DNA of 57,593 bases, filler included, from Dugesia japonica (lineage: Eukaryota), in the NCBI GenBank assembly GCA_001938525.1. It is 5 parts of 5 records of this genome, joined end to end, with 100 filler letters (N's around TTAATTAATTAA, not from the genome) between each part and the next. Parts side by side here need not be neighbours in the genome. Positions count along the whole stretch, not along the records: positions 1 to 8,844 come from MQRL01600199.1; positions 8,945 to 21,781 come from MQRL01593335.1; positions 21,882 to 31,449 come from MQRL01600176.1; positions 31,550 to 41,063 come from MQRL01360255.1; positions 41,164 to 57,593 come from MQRL01557826.1. The stretch is one strand, 5' to 3'. Within the stretch, counting starts at the first letter, position 1, and each line of letters begins with the position of its first letter. The notes below the pieces were generated by a model that was not told the origin of the DNA, ran no database searches, and worked only from the letters and a program-made list of their open reading frames with translations. A program made the translations under genes and the position numbers. This document shows, piece by piece, positions 2,488-51,540 of the stretch.

Positions 2488-2638
2488 GATTTCATTAAAA
2501 TAAAGAAAAAGCTTCGATCAAAATAAAATGTATTTGTAATAAAGTTCAAATTTTCGACAATAGTCGAAATTTGAAATCTCAAATGCGATCAATGGTCAAG
2601 TCCAACAATTATTCTCACAATAATTGTAATTATAAAAC
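2488..2638 (+). mobile_element. Fold-back/hammerhead-derived short retroelement copy (truncated; fold-back at stem II)
   Basis: Shares AAAGCTTCGATCAAAAT and the tail CAATGGT.A.GTCCAACAATTATTCTC.CAATAATTGTAATT with four other copies. TSD TAATAATA(A/C)TGT at 2476-2487 and 2639-2650. Confidence 0.75.
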
Positions 2639-2697
2639 TAATAATACTGTATTTTTCTAAATTGAATAGATAGAATAAATTATAAAAATAAAATTAC

Positions 2698-3929: not shown

Positions 3930-6510
3930 CTGAATGTTAAGTTGTATATAAGCATAAGATAAATGACACTATTTTTAAATTTAATTTCGTTTATATTATA
4001 AGATGTGTATAAAATAATAATTATTTCTTCGATTTATCAATCTTACTATTCACTACAAATATTTAATTTTAATATAATAAATCACAATAATAATTATTAA
4101 ATGAAATCGGTTTCTGAGAGAACTTTTATTGCGTTTCTTGTTGCTTCAGATAGTTCTTTAATTTTGACCATTTTGAAGATGATTTTATTGGTTTTTTTAC
4201 AGTTATATATTAAAATATTTTTAGTCGATAGGATGAATAAAAAATCAATGTAAAGATAAATTGCTTACTTTTTTTACTTCGATAATTAAAATGCATTACT
4301 TTTTGGAATTGATAATTTACTTAATGCGGTATAAACTCGTATAAAATTAATTTTCAAAATAATTTGTATTTTTATAGATACCTATCGTTGAGATTTACAT
4401 AAATATATAATTATATATGTACAGTTGTTTTCATTTCGTAATTTATAGACAAAATCCAAAATATGCAATACTTTTGTAATAACTGTAANNNNNNNNNNNN
4501 NNNNNNNNNNNNNNNNNGTAAATGGTATTTCTATTCATTTTTGTTTATAAATTTTCTTAGAAACAGTTTCAATTTTAATTTACTTTCAAAACAGAAAAGT
4601 ATTTAAGAGAAAAACGAAAAAAATGTATTATATTGAATGTGCTTTAGAAAATTTTTCATATTTTAATCAATATAATAACTGAAAAATTAATTTAATAGGT
4701 TAGATCTCATAAACAAAACAGTAAATAAAATTACATATACTAACAAAAAATTGAACTTAATTTTTCTATCAGTAAAAAACTGAAAATAATTAAGCGAATA
4801 AAAAATATAGAAAATTAAATAATTTAAGAATCCAATTATATTGAGTAAAAAATGTCGGTGGATACATTGTTCTGATAAAACTGTAAATAAAAAATTCATT
4901 GACATGATGTGAATCTAACTGGAATGCTTATAGAAATCAAAATTTTCTCAATTAAAGGGATAGGTAAATTTGTTTTACTTTTCAATGTAATGTGTAAATA
5001 ATATTTTTTTAAAAATGGATATTATTTTATTTTTAATAAAAAATTATCAATTGAAATTAAGAAGTCCCCAAATACTGTAGCTTTGTTTGATTACATGAAA
5101 TACACAAAAAATAAACTATGCAATTTGACAATCAATAAATAATAAGATTTGATAGATATCAAGTTAATAAATAAGTAAATTTCAAAGTTTATTATTTAAA
5201 ATTAATTGCCATTTAGCTTATGAAAATGCAGTGCCAGGTTGAAAAAATAAACATTTCCGGCATTTGTTAGATGAGTTTTGAGAACTCCTCGGATTATCAA
5301 CATCAAAATTCAACTCCATAAAATTTATTTCAAATAAAAAATTAAATGACATAATTATTTGTTTATTCAAACAAATTAAAACTTCATGCTCTAATTGAAA
5401 ACTATTTTTTAATAGATTTAAAATTTCAGATTGAATTCAAAACTCATTTAAAGATTTTTTTGAAAAAAAATAATTTCAAAATCAAATGAAAATTTTAATT
5501 CAAACTTCTATTCAAAATAATTATTTTAACTTCTTAATTAATTTGTGATTTTTAATTTTTTTAAAAAGATTTTTAAAGAAACAGTTTCCAATCAAAGCAC
5601 AAAAATTTCAACTCGCTTTTCAAAACATAAAAAATTATTTTACATTTGTTTTATAATCTTCACTTTTTTAAATTAAGTATTATAATAAATTGATGGCTTA
5701 ACAAAAAATCAAAATGAAAAAAAATTATTTTTTGGCCGCAATATTTTACAAAACAAAACAATAGATATGGAATTTTAACTTGGGAAACAAAAATTTATGA
5801 AAAATAGATTTCAAGCTTTTAATTATCACAATTAAATCATGAATATTTGAGGTGTGCAAATAACAATTGAGTGGATTTTGAGCTTGGTGTGTATAACACT
5901 GTCTGAATTTAAGTATTAACTAAGATCATAAAACTTTCTATAATATATTAAAGAAACTAATGGGACATTTTCATTTGGAATTACATTTTAATGAAACAAA
6001 GTAGATTGTTTAATTCTTTCGCACCTATTGGGATAATATATCCCAGAGAAAGTTTAAAGATACCTAATTTCACTTTAAAGTTAAAAATTTCTATTGGAAT
6101 TATATTGTTCCAGGATAATTGAAGAATATACAGGGGAAAAATTACTCAAACCCCATAAAATTTGCCATCACGCTACATTACCAGACTGAAGAATTTTAAG
6201 ATTCTTTAATTTTTTTGTAATTTCCTTTAATTTCGTAGTTTTTTTTATTGAATAAATCGAATTTCATGATTGCGCAATTTTACTTCCATGTTATAATCAT
6301 TAGACATAAAATTAAACGCTGCGTAAGCAAGGGATCACCCTTGTATAACGAGTTAAAGAAAATACTTAATTGTGACATTCACATTTAAAATTTCTATTTG
6401 TTAAAAGACGTATTGCATTTTTCTAGTCTTAGATATAAAAAAAACTCATAATTTGTAAAATTAATAAATATGATCAATTCAAAATTTATAATTATCAGAA
6501 AAAACCTTAC

Positions 6511-6939
6511 TATTTTTACTTCTTGCAAATGGAGCGATTGAATTATTGGTTTTTGGTGTCGATTCAATAACCTTTTCTTTAGCATCTTGGGGTATTGATT
6601 TATCCTGACGTTCGTTAAAGCAATCAACGCAAACTGAATAACCGCATTTTCGACAAGCCCAATGTGTGTTAAAAATACTAGTCTCACAAACATCACACAT
6701 TTCTCTTACTCCTTGAACTGGTCTTTTCCAAACTAATCCATTGAATTCCGGTTTGTTAGAATATTTAGATCCATTTACTACAAACGGTTTCTTTCTGTTT
6801 ACTAACTTGATATCGGTATCTTCGATTGCTTCGTAACAATCTTTAACAAACTGGTTTTCATTTTCAATAACTTGGCAAAATATTTCACTCAATGATTCAA
6901 TGATATACGAAGCTGTTGAAATTGAAAGATCTGAATTCA
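6511..6939 (-). CDS. KDM3: KDM3/JMJD1-family histone demethylase, zinc-finger exon
   Basis: WKRPVQGVREMCDVCETSIFNTHWACRKCGYSVCVDCF is the diagnostic KDM3 zinc finger. Acceptor tatcAG and donor GTaagg; exon is 429 nt, phase 1/1. Confidence 0.93.
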
Positions 6940-7057
6940 CTGATAAAAAAATTAAATAAATAAATATAGAATATAATTATTTTCTACATTAATATTATTT
7001 TTCAGGAGAAAATAATGAAAGGAAACTAATTTAAATCTTGAATCATGAAATATTTAA

Positions 7058-7058
<1 letters not shown>

Positions 7059-7121
<63 letters not shown>

Positions 7122-7220
7122 NNNNNNNNNNNNNNNNNNNNNNNNNNNNNNNNNNNNNNNNNNNNNNNNNNNNNNNNNNNNNNNNNNNNNATAATAATAA
7201 TAATAATGCTAATAATAATT
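7059..7220. repeat. (AAT)n microsatellite spanning an N gap
   Basis: Direct read of an AATAATAAT run on both sides of the Ns. Confidence 0.95.
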
Positions 7221-8444
7221 AAGTTAGTAAATATTTAAACAAAATCTATATAACAATAAAGATGTAAAACATTTAAAAAACTAAATATATTTATATTTAT
7301 ATTTATATGTTTTCATATTAACAACCAATAACCTAATGATATCTTCAATTCAAAAAATATTACTAATATAATGAAAATATATTTATTGTTCTTTAATGCA
7401 TATCCACTAAGAAGATTGACAAATTAAATATCATAATAATCGCGTCAATTACAAATATGACAAAATAAGAGTATTAATAAATTATACTAATTAAAACAGA
7501 ACTACTTTAACAGAATTGATAAAAGAAACCTTCTTCCCATGAATGCTACGATCAGTTGTTATTAAAAAGATAATAGAGAATTTTAGAAGAAAAAATATAT
7601 TATCGATAATCAAATTGCTAATAATTGTTTTACAGAATTTTAAAGATTTCTTTTTAACATGTCTGAATGTCCATTTAAAGCAGGACTCCCAAACGATCTC
7701 TTGGGCCAATTTTGTTAATCAACTGGCTGCAGTGATGTTATAACTGTGTAAAATTAAATGTAAACTTTAATACTTTGTAATACTGCGTAAAACTAAAATT
7801 AATTCAACGTACCTGTTTTAGTACATTTAGTAATTATTGAAAATTACGCTATTTTACATCAGAGTTAAGCTAATTAATTAGCTAAATGTTGATATATTTA
7901 TACTAGTCCTAGTGAAGTATTGCGGACCACATTTAAACACGACGAGGCCGCATGCCCCCCCTTCAAGATATACTATTTCTGAATAGTATAAGTTTTTAGA
8001 ATTAATTAAAATTTTGTATTTATTATGGTAAAATTCTGTTGTTTAAATATTGAAGAAATTTGGAAATGGATTTAAAAAACATTTTATCGATTTATTTTGA
8101 TTGGAATTATTTGTGTGATTTTATTTGATCGTTATCCAGAATTCATCAGAGCTTTGATTATTTATTTCATTGTAAACGTAATTTTTATATTGTTATTTGT
8201 ATATTTGTTAGGTAAATTATTAGTGTATTTAACCAACTGTTAAAGTTTTATAATAAATGTTTGACGAAAAAGAAGACGTTTTTAATAATGGGTATGTAAG
8301 CCCGCTCCCTAAAAAACTTCATTAATAAATAAGTATTAAATAAGAATTTTTACTTTTATTAAGAAATCTTAAATTATATTTATAACATAAATCCTATAAT
8401 AAATATCATAAAAATTATTAAAGAATTTTACCATGGGAACTGAA

Positions 8445-8680
8445 TTTTATAATTACAATTATTGTGAGAATAATTGTTGGACTTAACCATTGATCGCATT
8501 TGAGATTTCATTAAAATGAGAAAAAGCTTCGATCAAAATGAAATGTATTTGTAAAAAAGTTCAAATTTTCGACAATAGTCCTCTTCAGGAACATCTGGTT
8601 TTTGGTTCTATTGTCGAAAATTTGAACTTTTTTACAAATACATTTTATTTTGATCGAAGCGTTTTCTTTATTTTAATGAA
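8445..8680 (-). mobile_element. Fold-back short retroelement copy with minimal hammerhead
   Basis: Inverted repeat of about 80 bp with the family tail on the left. Probable TSD ATGGGAA(CT/AA)GAA at 8433-8444 and 8681-8692. Confidence 0.75.
8559..8592 (-). ncRNA. Minimal type I hammerhead ribozyme motif
   Basis: GTTC-CTGAAGA-G-GAC(TATT)GTC-GAAA-AT-TT-GAAC. Stem I GTTC/GAAC, stem II GAC/GTC, palindromic AATT stem III. Confidence 0.7.
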
Positions 8681-8844
8681 ATGGGAAAAGAAATTCTATT
8701 AATAAGCGTATTTTGCAAAAAATTTTTTATAAATTTGAGACAGCATAAATTAAAATATTCTTATTTGATAAAACGATCTAAAAATAGTTATTTGTTTACT
8801 GGCAAGTATCTAATGATGAATATCAAAGACAAAAAAAAATTACC

Positions 8845-8944
8845 NNNNNNNNNNNNNNNNNNNNNNNNNNNNNNNNNNNNNNNNNNNNTTAATTAATTAA
8901 NNNNNNNNNNNNNNNNNNNNNNNNNNNNNNNNNNNNNNNNNNNN
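8845..8944. other. Artificial scaffold linker N44-TTAATTAATTAA-N44 (also centred at 21826, 31494 and 41108)
   Basis: The same 12-mer, with stops in all six frames, sits inside a 100-bp N block four times. Confidence 0.95.
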
Positions 8945-10095: not shown

Positions 10096-10469
10096 ATATA
10101 TTTATTTTATTACATGGCAAAATTTGAAACAGTTATAGTGATCAACAGAAAACCAGTCCAAAAGCTGATAAATCAAAACGTCCATGGTTGATGGCGCCAG
10201 CCATAATTGTTTTACAATTGTAAAACAAAAGCTGATAACCTGAAATTAGTTAAGGTGGCTAATTATAACCGTATGTTTGACAGAAAATTTTCTCTTCACT
10301 TTATTTCATTTTAAAAAGATGATTCAATTGAAATCATATCGTTTAAATATATGTATTTTAAAAACGCTAAACATTATTTTGAATTTGAAGATGAATTGTA
10401 CATAAATGATATACAATAATTAAATGAATATTTTTCTAAAAACATTTTAACACCATTTCAAACTTTTTT

Positions 10470-10990
10470 GTTAAAGGAAGGTTAACTATTTCGATTTTCA
10501 TTGGTAAACATTCGATGAAACTTTGACAAAAACACTTATTTTACAAAAATTATTTTCGAAATGGGCTTGATAATTATTTAATTCCTTTATTAGAGTATTT
10601 GGAAGCAAAACCCAGTAAAACGACATAATCCAATGTTCATTTATAAGTAGTATTGTTGAATCAATACGTATCAGAGATATAAGTGTTCCTTTTATTGAGA
10701 TTAAAGGAAGGTTAACTATTTCGATTTTCATTGGTAAACATTCGATGAAACTTTGACAAAAACACTTATTTTAAAAAAATTATTTTCGAAATGGGCTTGA
10801 TAATTATTTAATTCCTTTATTAGAGTATTTGGAAGCAAAACCCAGTAANNNNNNNNNNNNNNNNNNNNNNNNNNNNNNNNNNNNNNNNNNNNNNNNNNTC
10901 CAATGTTCATTTATAAGTAGTATTGTTGAATCAATACGTATCAGAGATATAAGTGTTCCTTTTATTGAGATTTACTATACTTTAAAGAAA
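10470..10990 (+). pseudogene. Probable Polinton minor capsid (penton) remnant, tandemly duplicated next to an N gap
   Basis: MFIY.SIVESIRIRDISVP resembles the minor capsid motif YVY.DI.E...VGD...PLLR. It lies between the ATPase and the MCP. The ~230 bp duplication may be an assembly artefact. Confidence 0.45.
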
Positions 10991-12240: not shown

Positions 12241-13867
12241 TTGAAAAGAATATTAGATAGCGAGATAGATGGTCCACCAGCAAAGAAAATCAAACACGAA
12301 TGTATTGTAATAGACAAACCTGAAGATAATGAAGAAATGATGATTGATCTTGGGTTGGTTAATGATAAAGTCAAAAACTGGTTTGATTTTAAAATCACAG
12401 ACAAATTAAATGAAGAAGATATTATAATGCAAAATCTTTTTAAAAATAAAGAACAAGTTGTTGGCTATCTCAATGATGAAATGAATGAAGATGACAAAAT
12501 TTTATAAAGTTTTATCGAAGAAGAAGATGTATATATTGCAAATGATGATTCAGAAAATGAAGTAGTTATTGAAACAGATTTGTATCGCTGTCAGAGATTA
12601 ATGAAAATAGATGTATCAAAATGGATTTTAAATAAAATTTTGTTATCGGATTCAATAGTCACTCAGTTGTAGGAAAATATAGAAGAAATGAAACAAATCA
12701 AAATCCAATTTGGTATAAATGTTGAATTTATGAAAGATGAAGAAACAAAAACTTACAGATTATCTAATTATACTGTCTCTCTCTCAGAATCATTTTTAGA
12801 AGATGGAATAAAACAATTGAATAAGAAGATAGTTAATGAAAGAAGCAAAATGGGTTTTAGTTGGATATTAAGCCATATACTAGAAATAAATTTTAAAATA
12901 ACAAAAGTAGTAGAAATTAGCAGCAAATTGGGAAAGAAGAAAGTTATTGTTAACGTTAAAATAAGAACAATATACAGTATTCAAATACCATATTCTGGCT
13001 ATTCTTATATAAAAACAAGTANNNNNNNNNNNNNNNNNNNNNNNNNNNNNNNNNNNNNNNNNNNNNNNNNNAAGCCATATACTAGAAATAAATTTTAAAA
13101 TAACAAAAGTAGTAGAAATTAGCAGCAAATTGGGAAAGAAGAAAGCTATTGTTAACGTTCAAATAAGAACAATATACAGTATTCAAATACCATATTCTGG
13201 CTATTCTTATATAAAAACAAGTAGGAGAATGAAACAGATATTGAGCTACAAAAACATAAAGAATACATGTTCGAATTATTGTTTGATAAATGAGATATGT
13301 CAATAAAGCTTGCGAATATACCTGAGTTCGAGAGTCAAAATCCTGCTTATTCTATCTATGTCAATACCATAGAACTCTCATACTGTGGAAGTTGAAGATA
13401 ATGTTGTTATGAAACATTTAAATTTAGACATTATTCATCAATCGAAAGTGAAAGATGGTCAGAAAATCATTATGTTATTATTAGAAAATGGTAGAAAATT
13501 TTATTAAACGTTAGAATTTAAACGTATTGATGTATAGATATAAAAGATGGTGTTAAAATTCAATCAATTTGGTGCAAAACTTGTTTTAATGGTTTCTGGG
13601 ATAATATTGCCTATGAAAAAGAAACAGCTTTTAGACACATACAATTACATCACAAATTATTCTCTTTACAGCAAAAGAATAAACTCCGTCATCGGAAAAT
13701 TCAAATATGAGAGTAAAAGAAAGAAATATCAGGAGGGGATATTTTTGAGGTCGAAATTTTATAGCCTACTTAGCAAGAAGGAATCAAAAAAGGCTAAGAG
13801 CATATCATTGAAGAATACCCAAATCCCTCATCAGTTATACATTTTTATTTTCAGTAGAGCAATTTAG
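12241..13867 (+). pseudogene. Polinton protein-primed DNA polymerase B remnant (internally deleted)
   Basis: N-terminal KIQFGINVEFMK...GFSWILSHILEINFKI...KKVIVNVK. C-terminal VIGKFKYE...EGIFLRSKFYSL...KKAKSI, compare pPolB KKVIGKFKDE...EF..LRSK.YS...KKAKG. Confidence 0.75.
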
Positions 13868-15350: not shown

Positions 15351-17840
15351 CAGGGCTAGGGAGCTGGAGCACGAGCCGGAGTCAGGAGCCATGAAGCTGG
15401 GTGATTTTGATCATTTGGAGATGGAGCCGAAGCCAGGAGCTAAATCAATATTACTCCGGCTCATCAGTCCCGTTCGCTACACAAAACTGTTATAATATAC
15501 TTTAACGTTTAAAACGACATATGTATTTTTAAGAACTTTTGTATTTCGAATTTTTTCTTCGATTTTTTTCTTAAATTGGTTTTATGGAATTTACTTTACT
15601 GCGGACAATAACAAAAACAATTGCAATTTACTAGAAGAATTTAGTAGGACTTGATTAGTGATAGTGAGTTTAAAAAACAAAAAGAACATTTAACCTGATT
15701 AGATTTCAAACTGAGAATATCCAAAATCAAGTTTTGCTATTTTGCTATAAACGTTCAATTTTTAGATGATAATAATTTATTAACTGTACGTACGTTAGCA
15801 GTAAGAGACACAAAAGCGCAGCATACAATTGAGTTTACACGGGAATTAGTTGAAAAAGTTCTAAAGAAATTTAAAATTAGTAAGAAACGCGTCTTAACGA
15901 TTGTAACAGATAATGTAACAACATGATAAGCACAATAGAGAAACTAAACGCAAATTACACTGAAGATGGTATTGAGGAACAGAGTGACATTTCTCTAATT
16001 GCCGGTATAGAAAGTAGTGACACTAACTTTAGTGACAGTGAAAGTTTATCAAATGAATTAGAACATGTTATGATGAAAAGTATAACCTATTGTTTAACTA
16101 TAGATCACATGCGGTGCGTACATACATTACAGCTTGCCGTTCGTGATGGATTGACAGAAAAATATGCACATGCTTTAATATTAAAGTTACGTCACATTGT
16201 AATTGTTGCAAGAACATCTAAAATTAATGCAATATTAAAGCGTCGAGCAGGAAAATTTTTAATAATAGACCAAGAAACCAGATTGGGTAGTATTTACCTA
16301 ATGATTCAGCGTCTGCTTGAATTGAAAGACATTCTAACTGATATGGCTCATCCAAATATAACTCTAATGGAAGAACAATGGATTAAAGTAACGGAACTTG
16401 AATTAGTTCTCCGTCTCCCCTACTTAGTTACCAAGAGATTGCAAGCTACGGATTTGACCCCTGGCACATTTTATAAAGAATGGAAAACGATTTTTTTTAA
16501 ATTTTCGCAAAATGGGAGTTCCATTGCAAAACCAATTCAAATATCTCTGCAAAATAGGGAGATAAAACTGCTTGACAACTGTGAGCAGTTTTGGAAAGCA
16601 AGTTGAAATTTGTGTGATTGGTGATCTTATTTTTAAAATTTTCTGTCTAAAANNGAGATTAAATTATTGATGAAAAATTTAAATAAACAAATATTAGTTT
16701 AAGGATAAATTAAAATTATTGAATAATAAAGTTTAATTTTTTAAGAAATAAAAGTTTTAATTTTTAAATTTTAGAAAAGAAGATCACCAATTAAAACACA
16801 TGAATTTAATTTGTTTGTTTAACAATTAATGTTGGTTATAGTTTTGATTTTAATAAAGTATTGTTATGAATTCGGATTTTGATATTGATAATACGACGAG
16901 CTTTACAAACCCAACTAACAATAACAAAGTAATATTGGCAGCAATATACGTTGACCCAATGTACCGCATTACTTTAAGCGAGGAACAACTTTAAAAAGAA
17001 AAAGTGGCGTTAATTAATAATACAGTTAGGATGGAACGAGAAGATATGACATTAGATGTATATGTAGATCAGCAATATGAATCACCCATTACAATAGCGA
17101 GTCAGATTTCAATAAATTCCGCTTCTGAATATGAAACTGATAATGAGATTACAGCTTTTGAAAAGAGCCTTGATGTTGAACAAGCTAAACGACACCGAAC
17201 TGATAAAGAAAATGAATATATGGCTGTATTTCCAATATCTAAATTTAAACATGACTTCTGTAGTGCTTTGAATGAGGTAGAAAAAATAGATCGATCATCT
17301 AAAATAAAAGTAATAGAGGCTTTACCGCGTTACCTAAAAATAATTAAAAAAGTAGCTTATGCGGTAACTGCATTACCAACAACCCAAGTTAGTGTGTAGC
17401 ATTTATTTTCTGCCCTTTGCATTATACGTTCAGACCTTCGAGCATCGATGAAGGATGACTTGACTGAAGCTATATTGTTCTTAAGAACGAATTCATCTTG
17501 AATTTTGATCGTACATTGCTATTATGATATTATATCAATATTTTTATAAATATACTTTTTTAATATTTATATGTAAAAATACTAAATGTGAAAATTTTCT
17601 TTAAATGAATACATTTGTGAAATACTTAATTCTTATAAATTTAACCAGTTAAGTGCGTTTGAAGTATATATACGTTAAAATCTAAGTTTGTTTAATTTGT
17701 TTAAGATTTTTAGGAAAAATAAAAAAAAGCCCATAATTCAAATTGTATCATAGGAGCCGGAGCTACAACTTTCACTTGAAAAATTAGCTCCGGAGACGGA
17801 CTTGGAGCTAAGCCAATATTACTCCGCCTCCCCAGCCCTA
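15351..17840 (+). mobile_element. hAT DNA transposon with disrupted transposase
   Basis: Termini CAGGGCTAGGGAG and (rc) TAGGGCTGGGGAG with GGAGC(C/T)GGA subterminal repeats. Transposase motifs IVTDNVTNM, HMRC.HTLQLAV, DQETRLGSIYLMIQRLL and the dimerisation domain PTTQVSV*HLFS...EAILFLRTN. The 8-bp flanks (CTTTGACC/CATGAAAC) match poorly. Confidence 0.88.
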
Positions 17841-19689: not shown

Positions 19690-21781
19690 TTTTCTGAATT
19701 TAATACTATATCACTCCCCCCGTCAGATGGAGGAGCATTTAAAATAATGGCTGGACGAATTTTGTCTGTGGAAATTTGCTCTGCTTGTCCTTGTTGCATT
19801 TCTTCAATAATTTTCACATCTTCATTTCTCCAAGTTACCAGATATTGACCTACGTATACTGGGTGTAGTGGTCTTCTTAATTCGAGTTTTGATCCATACA
19901 AATTTACATTTATCAATTCCTTGTGGCATGAACGTTTTCGTGACTCCATGTGATCTGAGACAGCTGTTTCGAAATTCTGTTGGAACAACTGTTTGTCCGT
20001 CAGAGCATGATGGTACAACTAGGAAATCCAATACCGGGATACCAGGATACCGAAAACCGGGATACCAGTCAATTCTTTACGGTATTAAATACCGGCATTT
20101 CAGTATTTCAATCTTTACTTTTTTAAACAACTTTTTTATTAATATTTTTATCATTTATCTACTTTTCTCAATGATTGATTAATTAACATTTGTAACTTAC
20201 AAATTTTTTGTGTGATTTCTTTTGTGAAAATTTTTAATAAGCACAACTTTGGTAAGTTTATTTAAATTAAATTTAAATATTAAAATTTTTATTAGTCATA
20301 TAATTTTAATTTGTATTTTCAATAATCTAATTTAGCCCATGGAAAGTCCGAGTATGAAGTTTGTTCATCATTCAAAAAGCAGAGATGAAAGTTCGGTCTG
20401 GATTATCTTTCTCAAAGAAGAAAAAGGAGGTTACGCGAAATGTAAGAAATATACAAATATTATAAAAACTCGAGGTGGCTCGAATAGCGGCCTCCATACA
20501 CATTAAAAGATCAAACATGAAGTAATATCATGAAAACGAGTTGCTGCTAAACCTGTAGTTGGATCTAGTTCAAAATCTGATAAGCCTTTTACAAAAATTA
20601 CAAAATACTTTAGAAATAACAAGGACGACTCACTAGCAGCGATCCTAGCTAAAATAATAGGACGTGATGGGCTTCCATTCAAAATCTTTATAACATACGA
20701 TGATCTTCGAAAATCACTGAAAGCTTTAAATTTAAGTGATAAACCTCCAAAATTAGCCACCACCATACAGAAAATCGTCATTAATTATAGCGAAACCAGT
20801 CGTCAATTAGTAAGTACTGAAATTTGGATTGTAAATTAAAAGGATAGGGGTTTAGTTTAGTTAAGGGGTTTAAATTTAATTATTATTTCAAAATTTTTAT
20901 TGAAATATATTTTAATGAATTGTGATTTTTAAGTTCCTTATGTTTAGTTTAATTAGTATTTTAATGAATTATTTTTATTAATTTATATTGCAAAATAAAT
21001 AAATGTAAATTTTTATACATTACCAATAAAAATATGAATAATTTTTGAAAAAAGTGTGATTCAATTAATTTCTTTGAATCCCGGTTTTAATACCGGTATA
21101 CGGGTATTATAACTCTTTAATACCGAAATACCGGTATTGATTTTTCGTCCGGGATTGGATTCCCTAGGTACAACAATATCACCTGGTAAACGGAAATGCG
21201 TCCCAAAGATTTTTTGGCATGGTGATAACTCTGAATCTTCACATACCGCGTTACGGATTCCTAACATTGTTAATGAAAGATTTTCTAACCAACTACGTCC
21301 AGCATTAATTCCTTGAGTACACAGAGCATTCTTTAGAGACCTGTGAAATCTTTCTATTTTTCCATTGCACTATGGGTCGTATGGTGTTGTATGCTTATGT
21401 TCAATTCTAAAATTATTGCAGAAATAGTTAAATTTTTCAGAAATATATTGTCTATCATTGACGCTTACTTTTTTCTCTGGTACTCCGAAGCGATATATCC
21501 ATTCTTTAGTTAAGGCTTTAAGCACGGATTTGGATGAAATTTCATTCAGAGCCACTACCTCTGTCCATGAAGTATCACGATCAATCATTGTTAGTATAAA
21601 CTTTTTGTTTTGAATGATTGGTAACCAACCAAATACCTTGAATTTTCATGGATTCGGAATAGATCCTAACGGTGCTTTTGTGTGTCTAGTAATTCTATTA
21701 GCTTGACATATCTGACAAAATCTGCACCATTTACGAATTTGGGATTTCATACCTGGCCAAACATAATGACTTGTTAGTAAT
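19690..21781 (-). mobile_element. Ty3/gypsy LTR retrotransposon integrase and 3' end, interrupted by a hAT element
   Basis: YVWPGMKSQIRKWCRFCQICQ, LTMIDRDTSW, WIYRFGVP, HTTPYDP.CNGKIERFHRSLK, LGIRNA, RRPLHPVYVGQYLV. Polypurine tract GACGGGGGGAG followed by TG near 19713. Confidence 0.9.
20020..21166 (+). mobile_element. Internally deleted hAT element with BED zinc finger and perfect 8-bp TSD
   Basis: TIRs TAGGAAATCCAATACCGG and (rc) TAGGGAATCCAATCCCGG. TSD GGTACAAC at 20012-20019 and 21167-21174. ATACCG subterminal repeats. Remnant SVWIIF...AKCKKY...KTRGGSNSGLHTH*KIKH and DGLPF. Confidence 0.93.
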
Positions 21782-21881
21782 NNNNNNNNNNNNNNNNNNN
21801 NNNNNNNNNNNNNNNNNNNNNNNNNTTAATTAATTAANNNNNNNNNNNNNNNNNNNNNNNNNNNNNNNNNNNNNNNNNNNN

Positions 21882-31449: not shown

Positions 31450-31549
31450 NNNNNNNNNNNNNNNNNNNNNNNNNNNNNNNNNNNNNNNNNNNNTTAATTA
31501 ATTAANNNNNNNNNNNNNNNNNNNNNNNNNNNNNNNNNNNNNNNNNNNN

Positions 31550-40371: not shown

Positions 40372-43199
40372 AGTGCAAATGGATTGGGAACAACTAGAAA
40401 TTAATAGTGTTTTCTGGAATGATAAATAAACAATTTGTGCATTGTAGACTGTTGTGATAATGTTTTTTTATTTAATTTGTGTGTAAGTATTATATGTATA
40501 TACATACATCCATGTATTACATAGATATAATTTCTATAATTGTTGGGGAAACACAAACACCAACTACTAATTAAAACATCAACAAAAAACACAATACAAG
40601 CACAAACAAACCACAACAATCAGAACAAAATCCAGCTAAAGATCAACGCAACCATTCAACATCCAGAAAACCGGCAACTTCTGAATTATTTGAACTTTGT
40701 TGAATTCGTTATCAAACTTTTGTGATTTGAATTTTTGTGAAATTAACTTTAACTATTCGGACTTTTGTGATCGATTTTGACAATTTGTAGATATCATCAA
40801 TAATTATTTATTTTTAAATTTTTCGATGTACTAAATAATTATTGATTTTAAAATTTTCGATATACTGTTGAAGTCTGAATACATCCAACACATAGCAAAG
40901 TACATACATAACATAGCATGCAGGGAAAAACATAACATAACAACAACTTCAAATCAATATCTACAACAAGTTCGAATCAACACCTGAACTTAAATCATTT
41001 AGAGATTATTAAAATAATTAATGAAGCACTTACTAAACTCCAATTAACACTTAGTTAACTTTANNNNNNNNNNNNNNNNNNNNNNNNNNNNNNNNNNNNN
41101 NNNNNNNTTAATTAATTAANNNNNNNNNNNNNNNNNNNNNNNNNNNNNNNNNNNNNNNNNNNNGATGCAATTACATCACAGATTAAGATATCAAATTACC
41201 GATAATCGCACTAATTACGTAAAGGGGGCGGGGGGGTCACTGAATGTGTGCTGGCTATGACTGCTACTATCTATCTACTGTATTTAAATGTTTGTAATAG
41301 TTTAAATTTAAGTTCCTCAATGTTGTTATCAATTTCAATAATAGGAGAATTATAAGTTGGTATCGTGCGTCTGAATGNNNNNNNNNNNNNNNNNNNNNNN
41401 NNNNNNNNNNNNNNNNNNNNNNNNNNNNNNNNNNNNNNNNNNNNNNNNNNNNNNNNNNNNNNNNNNNNNNNNNNNNNNNNNNNNNNNNNNNNNNNNNNNN
41501 NNNNNNNNNNNNNNNNNNNNNNNNNNNNNNNNNNNNNNNNNNNNNNNNNNNNNNNNNNNNNNNNTTCAGTAATGAGTAGTAATACTACCATCAACCACAA
41601 AATTAATATAATTAAAGGTGAAAGAATTCAAGATGAGAATACAGATGAATCATCGTAAATAATGCGAAATTATTTTTGTAGATGAGAAGGTGGTTAAAAC
41701 ACATTATGAAAAGTTTGAATAATTAAATTTAGATGAAATAATTAATTGGAATATAAAATATTTTACACATGAGATATATAGAGGTTACAAACAGTTTTGA
41801 GAGTTATTTTAAAATTTTAAAGGATTCGTTCCCAAACTCTCTGTTAATAGCAAAAATTAAAAAGTTGATGTACGATCAATGGAATTTAGATGTGGCTTAG
41901 TAATTTGAAATCATTCTTGAATTTTATTTGGTGAAACATTTTTTTGAAGGTTATTTGTAAAAGTTAACTTTGAGTGTTTTCAAATATTCTTTGTCGATGT
42001 AATTATTTTTAAAGATTTTTGTAAAAATCAATTTGCATGTAAGCGTTTTATTGTAGGACGTAATTTTCAGATTTTGAGAAGACATGTTTGAAAACTATTT
42101 GTGTTGAGAAATAAAGTTTATTCAGTTTGATCTGATTCAATTCAATCTTAGTAATTATTATTTATTTGGATTATTGAACTCAGTCAGATATTTAATTGTG
42201 TCCAACTTGAATAGATCTCAAGTGTCGTGACAACTTTAATTTTATGTTTAATTGATGTTTTAATTTTATGCATTATAAAAATTGATAAAAATGAATTAAC
42301 TGTTAAAAAAAAATATTTTAATTTCATATAAAACTTTTTAAAAATAAAATTAGTTTAATAATGTAATATGTAAATTCTTATTTAGAAAATAAAAAAATTA
42401 TTAATTTTCATTGAATAAAAGTTATAAAGTAAAAATCATAAAAAATATAATATATAAAAAATTTAAACGACAATAAAATAAATATTACCAATAATATCTA
42501 AAAATCATTAAAAAAATCCATATATGTTTAGAATTGATTTAATTCAAGGATTTATAATATTAAAAAATACAAAAAACATTAGCAATTTTTCTATAAAAAT
42601 TAATGAACACCATTTCATAAAATATTTATTTACTGCAAGTAATTTCGACGGAATAAAATCGTCACCAGGCAATTATTGATTATTAAAACAAACTATTTAT
42701 AAATTTTAAATGATTATATACTTTCATTTATGAAATCTTAAGAAATAATCAATAAAATAATTTTAAGAGCGATGTTGAATCTATCAACTGAACACTAATT
42801 TTTAAAATTTAATGCACTTATCGACAAAGCTTCACATATCCCTCTCTCACAATAATTGATTAATTGAATTAAATAAATATTTTATGAAATGGCGTTCATT
42901 TATTTTTATATATAATATTTTAATCAATATTCTCCTCGTTTAATAATAAATAATCAATAATTGGACTATAATCACATTAATTTAGTTACTGGTTATTTAT
43001 AATCATAAGAGTTAAATTGATTAAATATTTATTATGAATAATGAGCTTAATTGAAAAATATTCAATTATTTCGTTTTTTTAAAAACTTACTTCCACTAAA
43101 ATCACGCTTCACCAACGCCATAATAAGAATTGATTCACTTTTTATGAGATAACATTCTTTACATTTAATTATTCTTTTATAATCCTCATTTGACAATTT

Positions 43200-44910
43200 T
43201 TATCTTTTAAAACTACTTCTTTGTTTTCAATGTTTTCTGAATCTTAATTGCACTTTCTACAAAAAACATTTTTTCATATATGTCACTGGGAAATGGTTTT
43301 CATATATAACTGAGTAATTAATAATTCACCAGGTTTCCTTTAGATTAAGGTGTCCAGAAAATGAATCTAAAAGTCGATTGACGTCTCTAAAGTGAATTTG
43401 ATGTTATCATTAATACTATTGGCTCGTTCTACAATATTTTCTAAAGGAGAGTTAGTAACCAAGAAAATATCTTTTAGAATAAAAGCTTCGATCAAAATTT
43501 TTGTTTTTTTTAATGATACTTGATAACAATTCGATATCGAATTGCTATCAAATATCAATAAAAAACAAAAATTTTGATTGAAGTTTTTATTTAAATGAAT
43601 TCTGTAAAACAATCAATGGTTATGTCCAACAATTATTCTCGCAATAATTGCAATTGTAAAAGAAAATATCGTCTATATATATATGAATCATAGATGTATC
43701 TTCTTCTCAGCTTTGAGAACAATTTTATTTTCAATGAAGTTCATTAAAATTATCGCTAAAATGGGAGACAAATTGTTACCCATTGATAGATAACTTTTTT
43801 GTTTTAAAAGTTGTTCATCCATAAAATGCTGTCAGAGAATAGACAAAAACTGATAAGAGATTTGAAATCACTTTTAGTGATTTCAGGAATATCTGTACGT
43901 GTTTATCTTTCAAAGAAATCACTTGCAATATCGATAACATTTTCCGGTCCTTCAAAGGGAATTGATCCATAAAGATTTGCTACATCTAATGAACCAAATC
44001 GATCATCGTTGTTCCAGTCATAATTCTTAATTCGTTCAACAAACTCATAACTATTTTTAAAATGTGCTGGAAGAAAGCTTAACNNNNNNNNNNNNNNNNN
44101 NNNNNNNNNNNNNNNNNNNNNNNNNNNNNNNNNNNNNNNNNNNNNNNNNNNNNNNNNNNNNNNNNNNNNNNNNNNNNNNGATGAAACTGGTTCATGACAT
44201 TTAACTGCTGAAAATAAAGATTTTATTCGGTCTTCATATTTCTCTGCAATTTTAATTAAATCTTTATTAAATTTACTCTCTTCAGTAATTGGCAGTCTTT
44301 TATGGATGATAATCTCATAATTATTCAGATGTTGAGAGAAGAAATCCTTGTATGTCTGTTCAGGCAAAGCTATCAATTTATTTGTTTTGTCTGTTGGACT
44401 GATGATGATTGATTTCAAATTCTTTATTTCTTTAATAATTTTGTTTTCAATATTTTTAAATTTAATATTCTTATTATATTTGTAAGTTTCCTGAGTAAAT
44501 CTATATTGTTATCAATTTCTGTACTAAGATAATTGTACGTTGGTATTACCCTTCTGAATGATTGTTTATACTTCGACTTTTATGAAAAAATTGACGAATT
44601 ATCTGGTGTTTCAAATGTTGTATTTTCTAGTCGGTGTAATTGGTATTTGAGACTGTAAATGGAATCTTCAATCATTGCAATCTTCAATCATTGCAATCAT
44701 TGCAAATTGGAAGAGTCAGAGTCTCCTGAATTAACGGGGATATAGCTTGGTCTTTTATTTAACAATTCAATTTGTCTGTCAGTAAATGTATATGTTGTTA
44801 AATTTTGGAAAGGAAGAACAGTTATATTGTTTGTAACATCTGAGTGAAAATTTATTTTCATTTTGATTTTCTCTTCTGTTTTCGTTTTCTCAGCAAGTAG
44901 AGTTTTCAAT
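43200..44910 (-). mobile_element. Penelope-like element RT, degraded
   Basis: IIISPTDKTNKL, FKNSYEFVERI, FGSLDVANLYGSIP, MGNNLSPILA, YIDD|IF (split by an insertion), NSINDNIKFTLE. Confidence 0.88.
43472..43659 (+). mobile_element. Fold-back short retroelement inserted into the PLE RT active-site motif
   Basis: Perfect 11-bp TSD AAGAAAATATC at 43461-43471 and 43660-43670. The palindrome is centred on CAATTCGATATCGAATTG, and the family tail is present. Confidence 0.85.
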
Positions 44911-45505
44911 TTCTTTTGTTTGTTGAGATCATTAATGTTTTAAATTTTTCATATATTTCTTCATTTTCATTTTATAGAGAAAATGGAAGTGGTTTATTTT
45001 TTATCAAATAATTAAGTTCACAATAGAGTCTTTTATGAAGAAGCGTTATCCATTGAAAGCTTTGACACTTAGAAAGTTCTTCGGATTGATGACATTGAAA
45101 AGTATTCTTGAATTTTTTGTAGTTCTAAAACCAAATGGTATTAATTCTAGTCTTTTATATTCTTTTAAGTTTGATATGATTTTTAATTTTCTAGATTTTC
45201 ATCGCATTGAATAAATCAAAAAGTCCAAAAAGAAGCGTTACCGACAGTATTCATTTGACTATCTGTCATATGGATTTGACAAAGGTCTTAATTATGAAGC
45301 CGTCAAACACTTTTAAATTTTATGCACTCAGACATAAAAGATAAGCCACTGGTTTATTTTATTATTCTGCATAAGCAATTCGAAGAACGACAAACAATTA
45401 TCAACATTTTTCAAAATTGAGTTGTTGTTAATCTTATTAAGAAATTTAAAAACATAATAATATTCATGAAATTTAGTTACAAAATTAGTTACATAATACA
45501 TTGAT

Positions 45506-46014: not shown

Positions 46015-46253
46015 CATTAACTACTCTCGATTTCTAGAAAATGGCGGCTTTTAGAGTAAACAATAATAAAATTTATTTAAAAATCCAGTAAAAAATTTAT
46101 TTCTTTATTATAAAAATGGCGGTTATTAGAGTTTGGCGGATAAAAGAGTTCGTGGATAAAAGAGTTCGTGGATAAGAGAGTTGGCGGATAAGAGAGTTGG
46201 CGAATAAGAGAGTTGGTGGATAAGAGAGATGGCGAATAAGAGAGTAGTTACTG
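46015..46253. mobile_element. pogo/Tigger-type MITE with expanded 16-bp subterminal tandem array
   Basis: TIRs CATTAACTACTCTC and (rc) CAGTAACTACTCTC, TA on the left. About 7 copies of GAGTTGGCGGATAAGA at ~46129-46245. Confidence 0.75.
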
Positions 46254-46312
46254 TTATAAATAAATAAAAACAAAACATTTCCTAAAATGTATTATTAAAA
46301 TGTGTTCAGAAA

Positions 46313-49300
46313 TTAAGATTTTTCATATAATAAAATATATGGGCAAATATTACATTTGAAATCAAAGAAGGACACTTGATCATCATTTATTAAATACCAA
46401 TTATTCTTCCGTTTCCTGTAAGTCACATAATGACCTCCGGAAATATTTCCCATGTGATGGATAATTGCTGTCAATTTATAGTGAACATTCACAACTTCTC
46501 TTAAAACCAAAATATTAATTAAATATTTAAATAATATTAAATAATATTTTAATGAAGAAATTCATTAATTTCCTAAAATTTACATTTTAGAATTCTCATT
46601 ATTATAACATTTCGCACCAAATCGGAGATCTTCCTCATATTGAATATGATATTCCGGTTTGATCATTTCTTCTTTCTCACTGCTCCACTTATTAGCTTGT
46701 ATATGTAAAAGCAATAAATTTGGTGGCTGCCCCAAAAACAGTATATTCGATGATTTTTTAGGATCATCATCAATTATTGTCGGAGCAAAATGTTGATATA
46801 TTAGATAATTTAATGTAACTCCAGGAGATTCTTGAAATTTGTAAATTAATCCGANACAATTACAGAAATCTATCACTTTTGTATTCTCCAGATAAACCGA
46901 TTGATAAACCAAGATGAAACTGTGATTTACTGGGGATATTAATTCCAGAAAATGTATGCATCATTTCCATTATCAAAGGCATCGAATTCTAAATAAATTT
47001 CATCAAAAATAACTTAACACGCAATTTAATTAAATATTTATTCAATACAACAAGTTTCGACAGTATATATATCTGTCATCTTCAGGCAAAAATAAAAATA
47101 TAAATTTAACATGGGACTCTCTCTCTCTCTCTCTTCTTCTTATTCGAAGTCACGTACAAATATTTAAACTTTTATGTCTTCGCTAAAGAAATGAATTGTA
47201 GAAAAATTAAATTACGAAACGAATAATTAAATTGTTCTGAACTTGAATAATAATTTAAATGTTAAAAAGGTTATTAAAGATCTGGATAAATCTAATATTA
47301 TCGATAAAATATGTTGTGTTGTAAATATGTCTTACTCCGAGGGCTTTAAATATTTACAAAACGATTTGCTAAAATATTCAGTAAATCTCTCAAAATTTTA
47401 AACTGTCTCTCTCTGACTTTTAAAATAATAAATGTATTCAGCAAGAAGTCTAACACTCATTATGGATTGATTTATAATCTTATTTATAAATCTGAGTGTA
47501 AGGGGTGTATTGCTACATACATAGGAGAGACGTCTCATCTGTAAAAGGATTCAGGAACATATCGCAATCAAAGTGTAGAACATAATAGTCCGTGCTAATT
47601 AATTGAATCTCCAGAATCAATACAAATTCGACAAATCACAACCTTTAATCATAGTAAAATATTCCTAAATCTTTGGTATCTGATTTTAAAATTTTGGAAA
47701 GTCGTAAGTATAGTATCATTTTTGTATTGATAATTTGTTTTTGATTTGCAGTGCGTGTATTTAAGATGTTTATTGCTTGGTTTTTTAAAATTTATTTAAA
47801 TTAAAAATTTAATTGTTTTCTTTTGAAATACCCTGTAAAAGGTATGTATATTTTTTATAGTTATTTAATTTTCAAAATTTTTATTTAGAACAAACTTCGC
47901 TTTTTAGAAATAAAAATAACTTCAAAGAAAAAATTCTAGAGTATTCAGCAATCCAGGGCAGGATTAATATGAAATTAAAAAAAATTAATTTCCTTTAAAT
48001 TCTCAAGAAGTGTACCATGTTATCTCTTGTATTGTTATTAGCATGATTTTCAATATTTTTTAAAACATTAGCTTTCAATTTTTAAATTTGAAAGATTTTT
48101 AGATTTAGAGTAAACTGAATGGAGTGAATTATTTAAGTATTAATTATTATCCATTATATTAAAATTGTGATTTTATTATAAAGTTAACTTTTTAATTTTC
48201 AGAAATTTTGTTTATTTAAAAATCCGTTTATGCAGTTATGTTAACATTTGCATTTTGAATTTACTATTATTAATACAGTTGGAAATCACTTGTAATAATT
48301 TTTATTGTAATCAAATAATTAACTTATATTAGCAAAATTTGATTTTTATTGTGATCAACATGGAATGTTAAACATTGTAGTTCTAAATTTTCGATTTAAT
48401 GAATTTGTGTATCGCTAATTTAGATATCGCTAACATACTCACAAAATAAAAACTATTTATTGCTAACAGACGGGGCTCATCCTAATGAGTAGACTATACA
48501 TTGAATTGTGACAAAGCACTGTATTTGGGCGCCTTTTACTTTCGATTTAAATAATTAAATATTTTCGATTTCTCCATGCATACGGTATTTTAAAACACTT
48601 TTTTACCAAAACAATATTTTTGGTTAAACATTTGTGGAAATTTTTTAAACTTACATATTGAAAAAGGTTAAACCCATTTTTTAGTAAAAAAGTATTCAAA
48701 TTCAAAAAAAATTCAAAGCCATCTTTAAGTTGTAAATGTATTAAACTTTTTAGACATATTAAGTTAAATATTTTCCATCTCTTTAAAAGATGATTTGAAT
48801 AAAAATATATTAAAAGAAATTTCAATTTTGGTTTAAAAAAATGGAATTTTAAAAATCCAGGAGCAGAAAATTGAACTATAAATTCAAAAGTTGCAGGGTC
48901 AGTTAAATAAATATTTGTAAAAAGTAAGAAAACACAACTTGAAACAGAAAAAAACAAGAAAATGAAGTAAGCACTTTGAATAAAGAAAATAATGGTGAAC
49001 AACGGCCTTTCGTGTTAACACTGTCAGTTACTAATTCCATCCAAAAAATCCAGCCTTCAAATCAACATTAATTACTTCAGAGCGAAATATTAAGCCTCAG
49101 AGCCTTCAATATCAGTTTCTACAATTGATGTAACCAATTTCAACTCAAATGATCCTGTAAATTGGCGTGATCTAATTAATAGTAAATTTCGCAAAATCAT
49201 CGTTGAATAAGGATCTCAACAAATTAAACGAAATAAATAGTGGTTTAAGTTATCATTATTATCAGCAAAAACTACCAAACCGTAATATCATGTCAAGATC

Positions 49301-51540
49301 ATGACTTGTATATTCGATATCTAGAAATTATGTATTTTTTTTTATAGAAATTATTTAAAAATGATTGACATCAAGTAATGGCTATACAGAAAAGTAGACC
49401 GGCTACTTATTTTCTCTCAAAAAAGTAAACTGGGAGTGAACGTGTTAATTATTGATTTGAATGCTATGATTAGAATTATGGATACCATAGCAACAGTCGC
49501 TCTGGAAATGCTGCAAAACATACACAGTCTGAGATTGAATATAGGCTTACCTATTATACAGAACAAATGACTCATATTTTGAAATTTATTGATAATAATA
49601 TAAGTTCTGCGAGTTTTGAACTTTTTGCTACATTTTCATGTAAATAAATTATATAATTTACTCCTCTGATAAATTTTAAAGTTTTTTGTTTTGTACGATT
49701 TATTTATATTAGTTTAAAAAATGTAATTAATAGTTAGTGAATTGAACCTTAATAATGTTGAAAAGTTAAAATAATTATTGAAAGTTTTTACTTTATTTGA
49801 ATTTTTATGATTCTTTATGTCTTTATAAATAGCGTTTAATATGGCCGACAATAAATCGTAAGAATCCTAGATTAAAAATAAGAAATCGATATTAAATTTA
49901 ATTATTAAGCTACTTGTTGTGCAACTTTTTGCCAACCAACCTTTCTGATTAAAGATTCAAGTTTCTTTGAATTTTCATTAATTTTCGAATTTGGATCATT
50001 AACACCTGATTATCGATTTTATTATTGATTCTTTAAAAGAATTTGAATAAAAATTTTTAATAAATAAATAATAAAAGTAGAAAAATAAAAATGGAAATTA
50101 TAATAAATAAATTTTTGTATAAAATTAAAATAATTTAAACAATTAAAATAAAATTTATTTACTTAAATATTTTATGGTAATTCATTAAAATAAAAGCTTC
50201 GATCAAAATGTTTTTTTTTATCATAATCCTAATTTTCGACTTTGTCTTCGTCAGGAATTCCCGAAAGTCAATTCCTGGCGAAGACAAAGTCGAAAATTAG
50301 GATTATTATCAAAAACAAAACAAATGTTGATGGGAGCTTTTATTTTATTGATTTCTGAAAAACAATCAATGGTTACGTTCAACAATTATTCTCGCAATAA
50401 TTTTAATTATAAAATTTTATGATAAATTTAAAATATTTTTGAAATTGAAACAAGGCGTCCAGAATTAATCAATAGGAAGGCATTGTGTTTTACCATGACA
50501 ACGTCAGACCACATGTGTCTTTATTGAATCTGCATAATTTGAGGAATCTTGATTGGAAGTTTTGTTGCATCCTCCGTATAGTCATGATATTGCACCGTCA
50601 GACTATCATTTGTTTTATTCATTGCAGAACTCACTTAATGATGCAAAATTGAATTCAAAAGATGACTATGAAAAGCGCTTATCTCGATTATTCATCGAAA
50701 AATTTTAGAAGTTCTACATTGACGGAATTCTAACTTTACCAAAAAATTATTCATATGTACTTTAATAAAGTTTTGAAATTGACTTCATATTTTTAAATTT
50801 TCATATTCACAAAATAATTTTAGACAACCCACTATAAAAATTAAAGTATAAATAAATAAAATTTATTTAAAATAAAAGATTCGATCAATAAAAAATTTTT
50901 TAGATTGATTTGATATTTCGACTTTGTCTTCGTCAGGAATTGACTTTTTCCTGACTAAGACAAAGTGAAAATATCGAATAAATCTCAAAAAAAAAATTTG
51001 ATCGAAGCTTTTATTTTAAATNAATTCTAAAAAACGATCAATGGTTACGTCCAACAATTATTCTCGCAATAATTCTATTTGTAATTGTAAAAATAAATTT
51101 ACATTTATATTAAAATTTCGCACAAAAATTTTTAATTTTTTTTATTAGCTATAAAGGAATTGAATTACGATGCATCATTTTAAACAAGAGTTATAGTATT
51201 AATAATTTTAAATATTACTATTAAGAAGATCAATGAGACTGTCCAATTTAGGATAAGAATTTTTCAAATCATATTTCAAGTTATCAAGTTGTTTTATAAA
51301 TGTATCATTGGATGCCAATAATTGGATAATTGAATTCATATAGCATTCTGCGGAACGATTATTCAATCCGGTAATTTCCTTGAGTGTTTCGGAGTTATTT
51401 TTTGTATCTCCATTAAAAATAAACTTTCCCAACTGCTTTATAATTTCATACAATCGATTTCTCAATCGCCTTATAAAATGATATAATAAATAGAGCAACT
51501 CTCTGGCCAAACCAAATAAAAATCTAAATATCCACAATAG
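46313..51540 (-). CDS. Ubiquitin-specific protease (peptidase C19), USP30-like; exons ~51540(or further 5')-51219, 46988-46584, 46499-46313; apparent 1-nt frameshift near 46955
   Basis: Hydrophobic N-terminus, Cys box GLNNRSAECYMNSIIQLL, PPNLLLLHIQANKWS, His box YKLTAIIHHMGNISGGHYVTYRK, WYLINDDQV, PYILLYE. Splice phases fit. Start codon not resolved. Confidence 0.8.
47045..47090 (-). ncRNA. Hammerhead motif in an inverted PLE pseudo-LTR
   Basis: CTGAAGA-T-GACAG(ATATATATA)CTGTC-GAAAC-TT-GT, with a 5-bp stem II, next to a PLE endonuclease remnant. Confidence 0.65.
47200..47710 (+). pseudogene. Penelope-like GIY-YIG endonuclease remnant
   Basis: NLIYKSECKGCIATYIGETSHL.KRIQEH. Confidence 0.8.
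49100..49350 (+). pseudogene. hAT (Tip100/ZMYM-type, TTF zinc finger region) transposase remnant
   Basis: NDPVNWRDLINSKFRKIIVE*GSQQ...YYQQKLPN...SRS*LVYS..RNYVFF. Confidence 0.55.
50181..50413 (+). mobile_element. Fold-back short retroelement with two inverted hammerhead motifs
   Basis: Minus-strand hammerhead 50225-50259: AATTC-CTGACGA-A-GAC(AAA)GTC-GAAA-AT-TA-GGATT. Plus-strand copy at 50270-50304. TSD ATTTTATG(G/A)TAA at 50169-50180 and 50414-50425. Confidence 0.82.
50445..50835 (+). mobile_element. Mariner 3' remnant (mellifera-like)
   Basis: RPELINRK.IVFYHDNVRPH, HPPYSHDIAPSDYHLFYSLQN. TIR-like end TAGACAACCCACTA|TA. Confidence 0.85.
50866..51090 (+). mobile_element. Fold-back short retroelement with two inverted hammerhead motifs
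   Basis: Minus arm ATTC-CTGACGA-A-GAC(AAA)GTC-GAAA-TA-TC; plus arm ...GAAAATATC-GAAT. Family tail present. Approximate TSD AAATAAA(A)TTTA. Confidence 0.78.

Follow-up and report, generated by a model that had tools for sequence, protein, structure and literature searches.

What are the short fold-back insertions with hammerhead ribozyme motifs in the genome of Dugesia japonica? We analyzed five copies that lie in a stretch of 57,593 nt, joined from five records of assembly GCA_001938525.1 (the whole stretch is "the window" below). [quoted passage not shown] We find that the copies are most likely leftover stubs of a Penelope-like retrotransposon, without its open reading frame (ORF), in which the front end of the RNA was copied twice, head to head.

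Five insertions and their tails

The five copies, with their start codons and target site duplications (TSDs), are:

Copy 1: 2488..2638, plus strand; inverted arm of 78 nt, junction in hammerhead stem II, deletion of ~66 nt from the right arm, 60-nt tail; start codon at 2592; TSD 2476-2487 / 2639-2650 (11/12 matches)
Copy 2: 8445..8680, minus strand; inverted arm of 73 nt and sense arm of 163 nt; start codon at 8490; TSD 8681-8692 / 8433-8444 (10/12)
Copy 3: 43472..43659, plus strand; arms joined at the palindrome of stem III, 3 nt away from the predicted cleavage site; start codon at 43616; perfect 11-bp TSD 43461-43471 / 43660-43670 (11/11)
Copy 4: 50181..50413, plus strand; hammerhead spanned by both arms; start codon at 50369; TSD 50169-50180 / 50414-50425 (11/12)
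Copy 5: 50866..51089, plus strand; hammerhead spanned by both arms, of which the inverted one reaches further upstream; start codon at 51041; weak TSD 50854-50865 / 51090-51101 (10/12)

Neither blastn nor an nhmmer profile of all the arms found a further full copy in the window (the next-best nhmmer match had E = 0.8), and the tail pattern had five matches in the window versus none in 100 shuffles. These searches agree with the annotated positions. The proposed TSDs of 11-12 bp also hold up, although that of copy 5 is weak: in 20,000 random draws of position pairs, with the same slide of ±2 as for the copies, at least 10/12 matches arose in 0.73% and at least 11/12 in 0.13%. The target sites are not (TA)n.

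The annotated layout, a long inverted repeat with a tail on one side, is present in copies 2-5, but copy 1 lacks ~66 nt of its right arm. In all five copies, the inverted repeat ends 60-69 nt short of one end of the element. The resulting tails (60, 62, 62, 61, and 69 nt) are not unpaired, as had been thought, but contain a stem-loop of 7-9 bp.

The tail links these insertions to PLEs. Using a 59-residue piece of a reverse transcriptase (RT) gene from the window, and not the tail, we fetched a protein of 843 amino acids (P0001, 80% identical over the piece). P0001 is an intact Penelope-like ORF with an RT domain and, at the C-terminus, a GIY-YIG domain. The translated tail of copy 1 is identical to P0001 at 14 of residues 1-18, and tblastn with P0001 matches all five tails (E = 2.5e-4, 7e-4, 0.001, 0.008, and 0.62). 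The five highest six-frame scores in the window (81-47, recorded as scores without their positions) exceed the maximum of 41 from 40 shuffles. When we scored 275 19-mers from P0001, only the N-terminal one scored highly on the elements. All five copies retain the ATG, and the MV with which three other relatives begin aligns with it. Also, the ORF-start region is better conserved than the leader before it (33/37 versus 30/56 invariant columns).

The sense arm contains, in order, the hammerhead, an AT-rich leader of 65-77 nt, the start codon, and ~15 codons; therefore, the sense arm corresponds to the pseudo-long terminal repeat (pLTR) of a PLE plus the tail. By homology, the tail encodes the first codons of a Penelope-like RT/GIY-YIG ORF, hence it is not non-coding, and each copy comprises an inverted pLTR, a direct pLTR, and an ORF-start tail, without the ORF. 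This bears out the proposed link to PLEs and to mobilization through RNA, while the description as non-coding does not survive. Another search, for N-terminal fragments, turned up a single protein, whose start lies downstream of the tail. Scans of prokaryotic genomes gave 13 pattern matches, none of them confirmed, and no tail matches.

The RT gene in the window fixes the ends of one copy:

Decayed Penelope-like ORF: 43277..45256, minus strand; from the N-terminus to the RT thumb, with stops, frameshifts, and an N gap, and without GIY-YIG; 45-60% identical to P0001

In the six-frame translation, copy 3 interrupts this minus-strand gene directly after the YIDD motif. The best gap-free fit to P0001 across copy 3 (77/116 identical) removes 201 nt, made up of the element itself (188 nt), a single copy of the 11-bp duplication, and a TA slip of 2 nt. 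The fit acts as an empty site and thereby establishes both the ends and the TSD of copy 3.

We considered this remnant as the parent of the copies, but this is unproven: it has no pLTR or tail match and lies in the opposite orientation to copy 3. A Pfam search with the RT fragment alone returned nothing, and we dropped the idea that the remnant had an N-terminal GIY-YIG domain (as in Naiad) because the endonuclease (EN) of P0001 is C-terminal. Other pieces related to PLEs are an RT scrap at 54777-54965 (+), which overlaps a 38-bp inverted repeat (54813-54850 / 54908-54945) at which we sought a TSD and found none; a GIY-YIG scrap at 47395-47592 (+); a weak RT scrap at 26917-27294 (-); and two P0001-related pieces at 41274-41375 (-) and 41575-41637 (+), which run in opposite directions across an N gap and are possibly another head-to-head PLE insertion.

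Hammerheads and inner junctions

The initial annotation placed hammerheads at the center of three copies. The core is indeed reached by five arms in three copies:

Copy 2 hammerhead (tail-side arm): 8559..8592, minus strand; intact minimal type I motif with a 4-bp stem I, a 3-bp stem II, AATT as stem III, and U17
Copy 4 inverted-arm hammerhead: 50225..50259, minus strand, opposite to the tail; intact minimal motif with a 5-bp stem I and A17
Copy 4 tail-side hammerhead: 50270..50304, plus strand; core A6 changed to G
Copy 5 inverted-arm hammerhead: 50908..50940, minus strand; intact core, ATAT as stem III, C17, stem I with its first pair broken
Copy 5 tail-side hammerhead: 50948..50979, plus strand; stem I intact, core and stem II mutated

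The minimal motif is real, but only two of the five arms are intact. Copies 1 and 3 lack the CUGANGA half of the core, and the arms of copy 5 are damaged at different places, so that an intact hammerhead is obtained only by combining them. The two intact arms have the features of minimal PLE hammerheads: the core boxes, an extra nucleotide after A9, the G10.1-C11.1 pair, a palindromic 15.2-16.2, and a helix I of 4-5 bp. A descriptor for minimal hammerheads, which we composed after the motifs had been seen, has two matches in the window, both inside the family (8559-8592 and 50225-50259, both minus), while 200 dinucleotide shuffles gave a mean of 0.005 matches. The hammerhead lies 65-77 nt upstream of the start codon, in the sense of the ORF; in copy 2, for instance, it has the same sense as the tail and the start codon is 72 nt downstream.

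The reported covariation of the stems fares less well. Across five related rows from three copies, 90% of the cells are paired, with a clear optimum at zero slide, and the covariation score was equaled in just 2 of 500 shuffles. But there are only two convincing double changes, in stem I (G-C versus A-U) and in stem III (AU versus UA). Neither the window nor two sub-regions of it matched the Rfam hammerhead covariance models, which is expected because the motifs lack helix III. The Rfam matches that we did obtain were to generic hairpin families and were below those families' own thresholds.

In copies 4 and 5, a reading frame ends at the UGA of the hammerhead core (50260-50276 and 50938-50950) and reads PKVNS or EKVNS, which resembles the P-x-I-N end of PLE relatives. 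Copy 2 does not fit. That the UGA of the core serves as the stop codon of the ORF is a weak hint, and the match is too short to count.

Could the ribozyme act within an inserted copy? The whole elements of copies 2-5 are predicted to fold into hairpins of -60 to -95 kcal/mol, and forcing the hammerhead fold would cost 29-49 kcal/mol. The long hairpin of an inserted copy is thus predicted to bury the ribozyme. Even in a single arm, without the other arm, forcing the monomer hammerhead would cost 3-7 kcal/mol, and in copy 2 the stability of the sense arm is unremarkable (z = -0.7). The ribozyme probably belongs to the parent RNA, where it would be a weak cutter assisted by dimerization or by protein.

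While the outer ends of the copies are fixed (the 3' end lies 44-49 nt past the ATG, and the inverted arm ends 13-20 nt short of it), the inner junctions differ in all five copies and are located between 3 and 45 nt upstream of where cleavage is predicted. The junction is in stem II in copy 1, at the stem III palindrome in copy 3, and just upstream of the core in copies 2, 4, and 5. Sense arms span 124-163 nt (copy 1 was corrected by hand for its deletion). This is tighter than expected under exponential truncation (P = 0.02 at the fitted scale and P ≤ 0.001 at longer scales, in a post hoc test with five draws). The extra central bases of copy 5 are the reverse complement of the bases upstream of the core in copy 4, so its inverted arm ran further than its tail-side arm. 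Because four copies retain bases upstream of the cleavage site, they derive from uncleaved RNA; copy 3 may derive from cleaved RNA.

A sixth, shorter insertion, which the initial annotation did not list, has a related structure:

54-bp insertion: 10172..10225, minus strand; a 16-bp palindrome followed by a 38-nt tail; exact 13-bp TSD 10159-10171 / 10226-10238

It has no hammerhead and encodes P0001 residues 16-32 (11/17 identical). The inverted end of this insertion is at the same codon at which the five copies terminate, and its junction is a perfect palindrome. The layout is that of the five copies, displaced downstream by one register, and the tail has the usual length.

How the copies arose

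We propose that the copies are dead-on-arrival products of two-site internal priming on the mRNA of a parent PLE, and not a self-propagating non-coding family. We put the probability of this at roughly 70%. The template RNA would carry the hammerhead, a leader of ~70 nt, the start codon, and the first ~15 codons, which is the order seen in the copies and matched by homology. [quoted passage not shown] These positions are observed, and the priming itself is suggested by in vitro work with the PAc protein. Both complementary DNAs (cDNAs) would run toward the 5' end of the RNA and stop in or just upstream of the ribozyme, where the transcript probably starts or was cleaved. Joining of the two cDNAs tip to tip, at palindromes or microhomologies, would give a head-to-head inverted repeat whose one-sided tail is the gap between the two start sites. 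The inserted copy would be dead on arrival, with its ribozyme locked in the insertion hairpin.

There is precedent, in Drosophila Penelope, for a transcript that starts just upstream of the ribozyme: transcription is described as starting 46 bp upstream of an intron (PMC2377424), and the end of this intron marks the start of the hammerhead (PMC4209133).

A stronger version of this proposal, which we consider tentative and unlikely, is that the ribozyme region is a programmed stop-and-join point of integration: the cDNAs would anneal through the ribozyme palindromes, and two RNAs might be held together by a dimeric hammerhead. It is possible, as part of this version, that the start sites form a ladder (about -16, +46, and +87 relative to the start codon), with the last two used by the 54-bp insertion. 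If so, then short head-to-head stubs would be the main transposition product, and the hairpins transcribed from them would be an inherent supply of RNA for silencing the parent.

Alternatively, as the initial annotation had it, the copies could be a non-autonomous fold-back family, in which a founder stub is transcribed and re-inserted in trans by a PLE protein, with the start sites kept in the tail. This would fit the high local density (5 copies in 57.6 kb), the uniform size of the copies, and the near identity of copies 1 and 2 (96-97%). Also, pLTRs alone are described as able to mobilize flanked DNA in trans (PMC3846280), and retrozymes are described as non-autonomous elements derived from PLEs (10.64898/2026.07.22.740005). 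But a family of this kind should share an internal junction, and we see five different junctions in five copies, albeit in a small sample. The arms within a copy are 96, 83, 85, and 75% identical, which equals or exceeds nearly all of the values between copies (58-82%, outside the copy 1/2 pair). Moreover, the transcript of a stub would be a near-perfect hairpin with its ribozyme locked, and a stub stops at the start site and so lacks the downstream stretch of the ORF (the first 172 nt) that PAc needs for binding. Because each copy has its own junction, the arms within a copy are alike, and the ribozyme is predicted to be buried, separate truncated insertions fit better than a self-copying unit, and we consider a family driven in trans to be quite unlikely.

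We rank next, as improbable, an account with the same origin but a different way to form the inverted repeat: a single cDNA would fold back at the ribozyme hairpin or palindrome, copy itself, and be resolved ~62 nt short of its own start. Self-priming has already been proposed for such junctions (PMC3846280). The junction of copy 1 is exactly the stem II hairpin, and that of copy 3 is, like that of the 54-bp insertion, a perfect palindrome. However, copies 2 and 4 have unpaired centers of 10-35 nt with no priming hairpin, and the extra bases at the center of copy 5 are in inverted orientation, so self-copying of the tail-side cDNA cannot explain that center. Self-priming would also require an additional cut to give the fixed outer end of the inverted arm, whereas this end follows directly from two start sites.

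Finally, a DNA-mobilized element (a Mutator/Foldback-type MITE or a Helentron-type element) that captured PLE sequence is highly improbable and already largely refuted: the copies do have a long inverted repeat, Mutator-like elements make TSDs of 9-11 bp (near the length here), and DINE-1-like elements have a 3' stem-loop, but the inverted repeats are not at both termini, the TSDs vary in length from 11 to 13 bp, every part maps onto the 5' region of a PLE, and Helentron/DINE-1-type elements, to our knowledge, insert into TT and make no TSD.

Several observations weigh against two-site priming on a parent PLE. The tail matches only one of the 162 fetched proteins (P0001), and the differences within the first 11 codons are not biased toward synonymous ones (0/3/1 by codon position). 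An autonomous PLE with the same pLTR is putative: P0001 matches as a protein, a hammerhead upstream of its start codon would be hypothetical, and the RT remnant in the window has no matching pLTR or tail at either end. Four of the five copies retain bases upstream of the cleavage site, so the stop cannot, in general, be due to cleavage. Deletions at the hairpin tip after insertion could yield both the differing junctions and the asymmetry of copy 5, and, with copies 1 and 2 at 96-97% identity, a unit like copy 2 could have given rise to copy 1 by deletion. The tails of 60-69 nt are longer than the 30-40 bp that is usually reported, and there are just five copies.

Stubs like these should be annotated as Penelope-like ends, which removes a false "new ribozyme retroelement" and a false "MITE." They are also a natural readout of how PLEs make inverted pLTRs and tails, and of what the hammerhead is for. 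If the clustering of junctions holds over thousands of copies, then the genome records both RT start sites as well as the effective 5' end of the RNA. Such a record would test, in vivo, the two-site priming model that comes from PAc.

The rest of the window is AT-rich (20-38% GC) eukaryotic sequence with assembly gaps and many transposon remnants. There are two inverted-repeat elements that do not match the five copies and are possibly MITEs (42578-42924, with 66 nt at 83% identity, and 51694-52131, with 63 nt at 73% identity around a gap). We also noticed mariner remnants at 1220-2219 (-) and 50450-50760 (+), of which the latter sits between copies 4 and 5; a hAT-like remnant at 15914-17399 (+), identified by eye; an integrase fragment at 21061-21645 (-); and an array of 16-nt tandem units at 46117-46244. 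Host genes include a divergent animal-type beta-tubulin with a ~40-nt intron (28940-30125, -), a piece of a ubiquitin hydrolase (51208-51615, -), and a zinc-finger exon (6394-6976, -). Assembly artifacts include gap spacers with a central palindrome (8845-8944, 21782-21881, 31450-31549, and 41064-41163) and near-exact duplications beside gaps (10471-10972, 12870-13223, and 21882-22563).

Comparison with known elements

Among clades of PLEs, P0001 shares with the Hydra clade a C-terminal GIY-YIG domain, DKT, and a CxCx5C linker. Members of the Hydra clade lack CCHH (CxxC plus two histidines in the EN) and target (TA)n, whereas P0001 retains CCHH, on which ground we rejected membership, and the target sites here are not of this type. 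The Nematis clade also has a C-terminal GIY-YIG domain, and the RT motifs of P0001 look Nematis-like in a by-eye comparison with alignment rows, without a tree.

The retrozymes without LTRs (PMC7229834; 10.64898/2026.07.22.740005) are, like the copies, described as short, AT-rich, and related to PLEs, with type I hammerheads and long TSDs. But they are direct tandem repeats with mostly canonical ribozymes. We found no tandem arrays of direct repeats that each carry a hammerhead: the copies are single head-to-head units with minimal ribozymes that are predicted to be buried.

The hammerheads themselves resemble the minimal hammerheads of metazoan PLEs described in PMC4209133, which share CUGANGA with an extra nucleotide, G10.1-C11.1, a 4-5 bp helix I, and only a palindrome for helix III. 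According to that report, dimers are weakly active and monomers are inactive. Helix II is 3 bp here, and not long as in Schistosoma (7-8 bp), but the PLE tables in file S2 of PMC8557442 also contain short helices II. PMC4209133 describes pairs of minimal hammerheads on opposite strands, ~100-700 bp apart, and links scattered motifs with truncated PLEs; here, ~10 nt separate the two motifs, which pair with one another.

The Poseidon PAc protein of Anolis (PMC11167929) is described as cutting and extending both strands and as starting RT at two internal sites, one on either side of the genomic tail. It made shorter products on 5'-shortened templates, and ribozyme cleavage was dispensable for insertion. 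As in our copies, the 3' ends fall inside the start of the ORF, within or beside an A/C-rich stem-loop; the tail lies between two fixed ends; and the targets are AT-rich. The positions differ: the start sites here are at about -16 and +46, versus near +111-118 and one tail length away for PAc, and the ribozyme here is ~70 nt upstream of the ATG, while the PAc ribozyme lies across it.

The closest match is to the inverted-pLTR insertions of EN+ PLEs, such as Pen2a and Pen3a of Adineta vaga. PMC3846280 describes an inverted and a direct pLTR, a tail with the first 22 codons, TSDs of 8-10 bp, solo pLTRs, and palindromic junctions; PMC8557442 gives the general scheme and the motifs of the clades; and PMC8969392 treats inverted pLTRs and 3' extensions as normal features of PLEs. 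Like those insertions, our copies have a truncated inverted pLTR beside a direct pLTR, a one-sided ORF-start tail, a TSD, and palindromic head-to-head junctions. Unlike them, our copies have no ORF, tails of 60-69 nt instead of 30-40, TSDs of 11-13 bp instead of 8-10, and junctions that are confined to the ribozyme region.

In the open-licence literature (Repbase was outside this search), we found no named class of ORF-less inverted-pLTR stubs, beyond the remark in PMC4209133. Nor did we find there an account of stubs whose junctions gather at the ribozyme, or of three start sites that possibly form a ladder; both of these patterns rest on six insertions in one window. Every part of the stubs is already known in PLEs. 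The copies work like, and belong to, the inverted-pLTR insertions of PLEs; by the features that define retrozymes and MITEs, they are neither.

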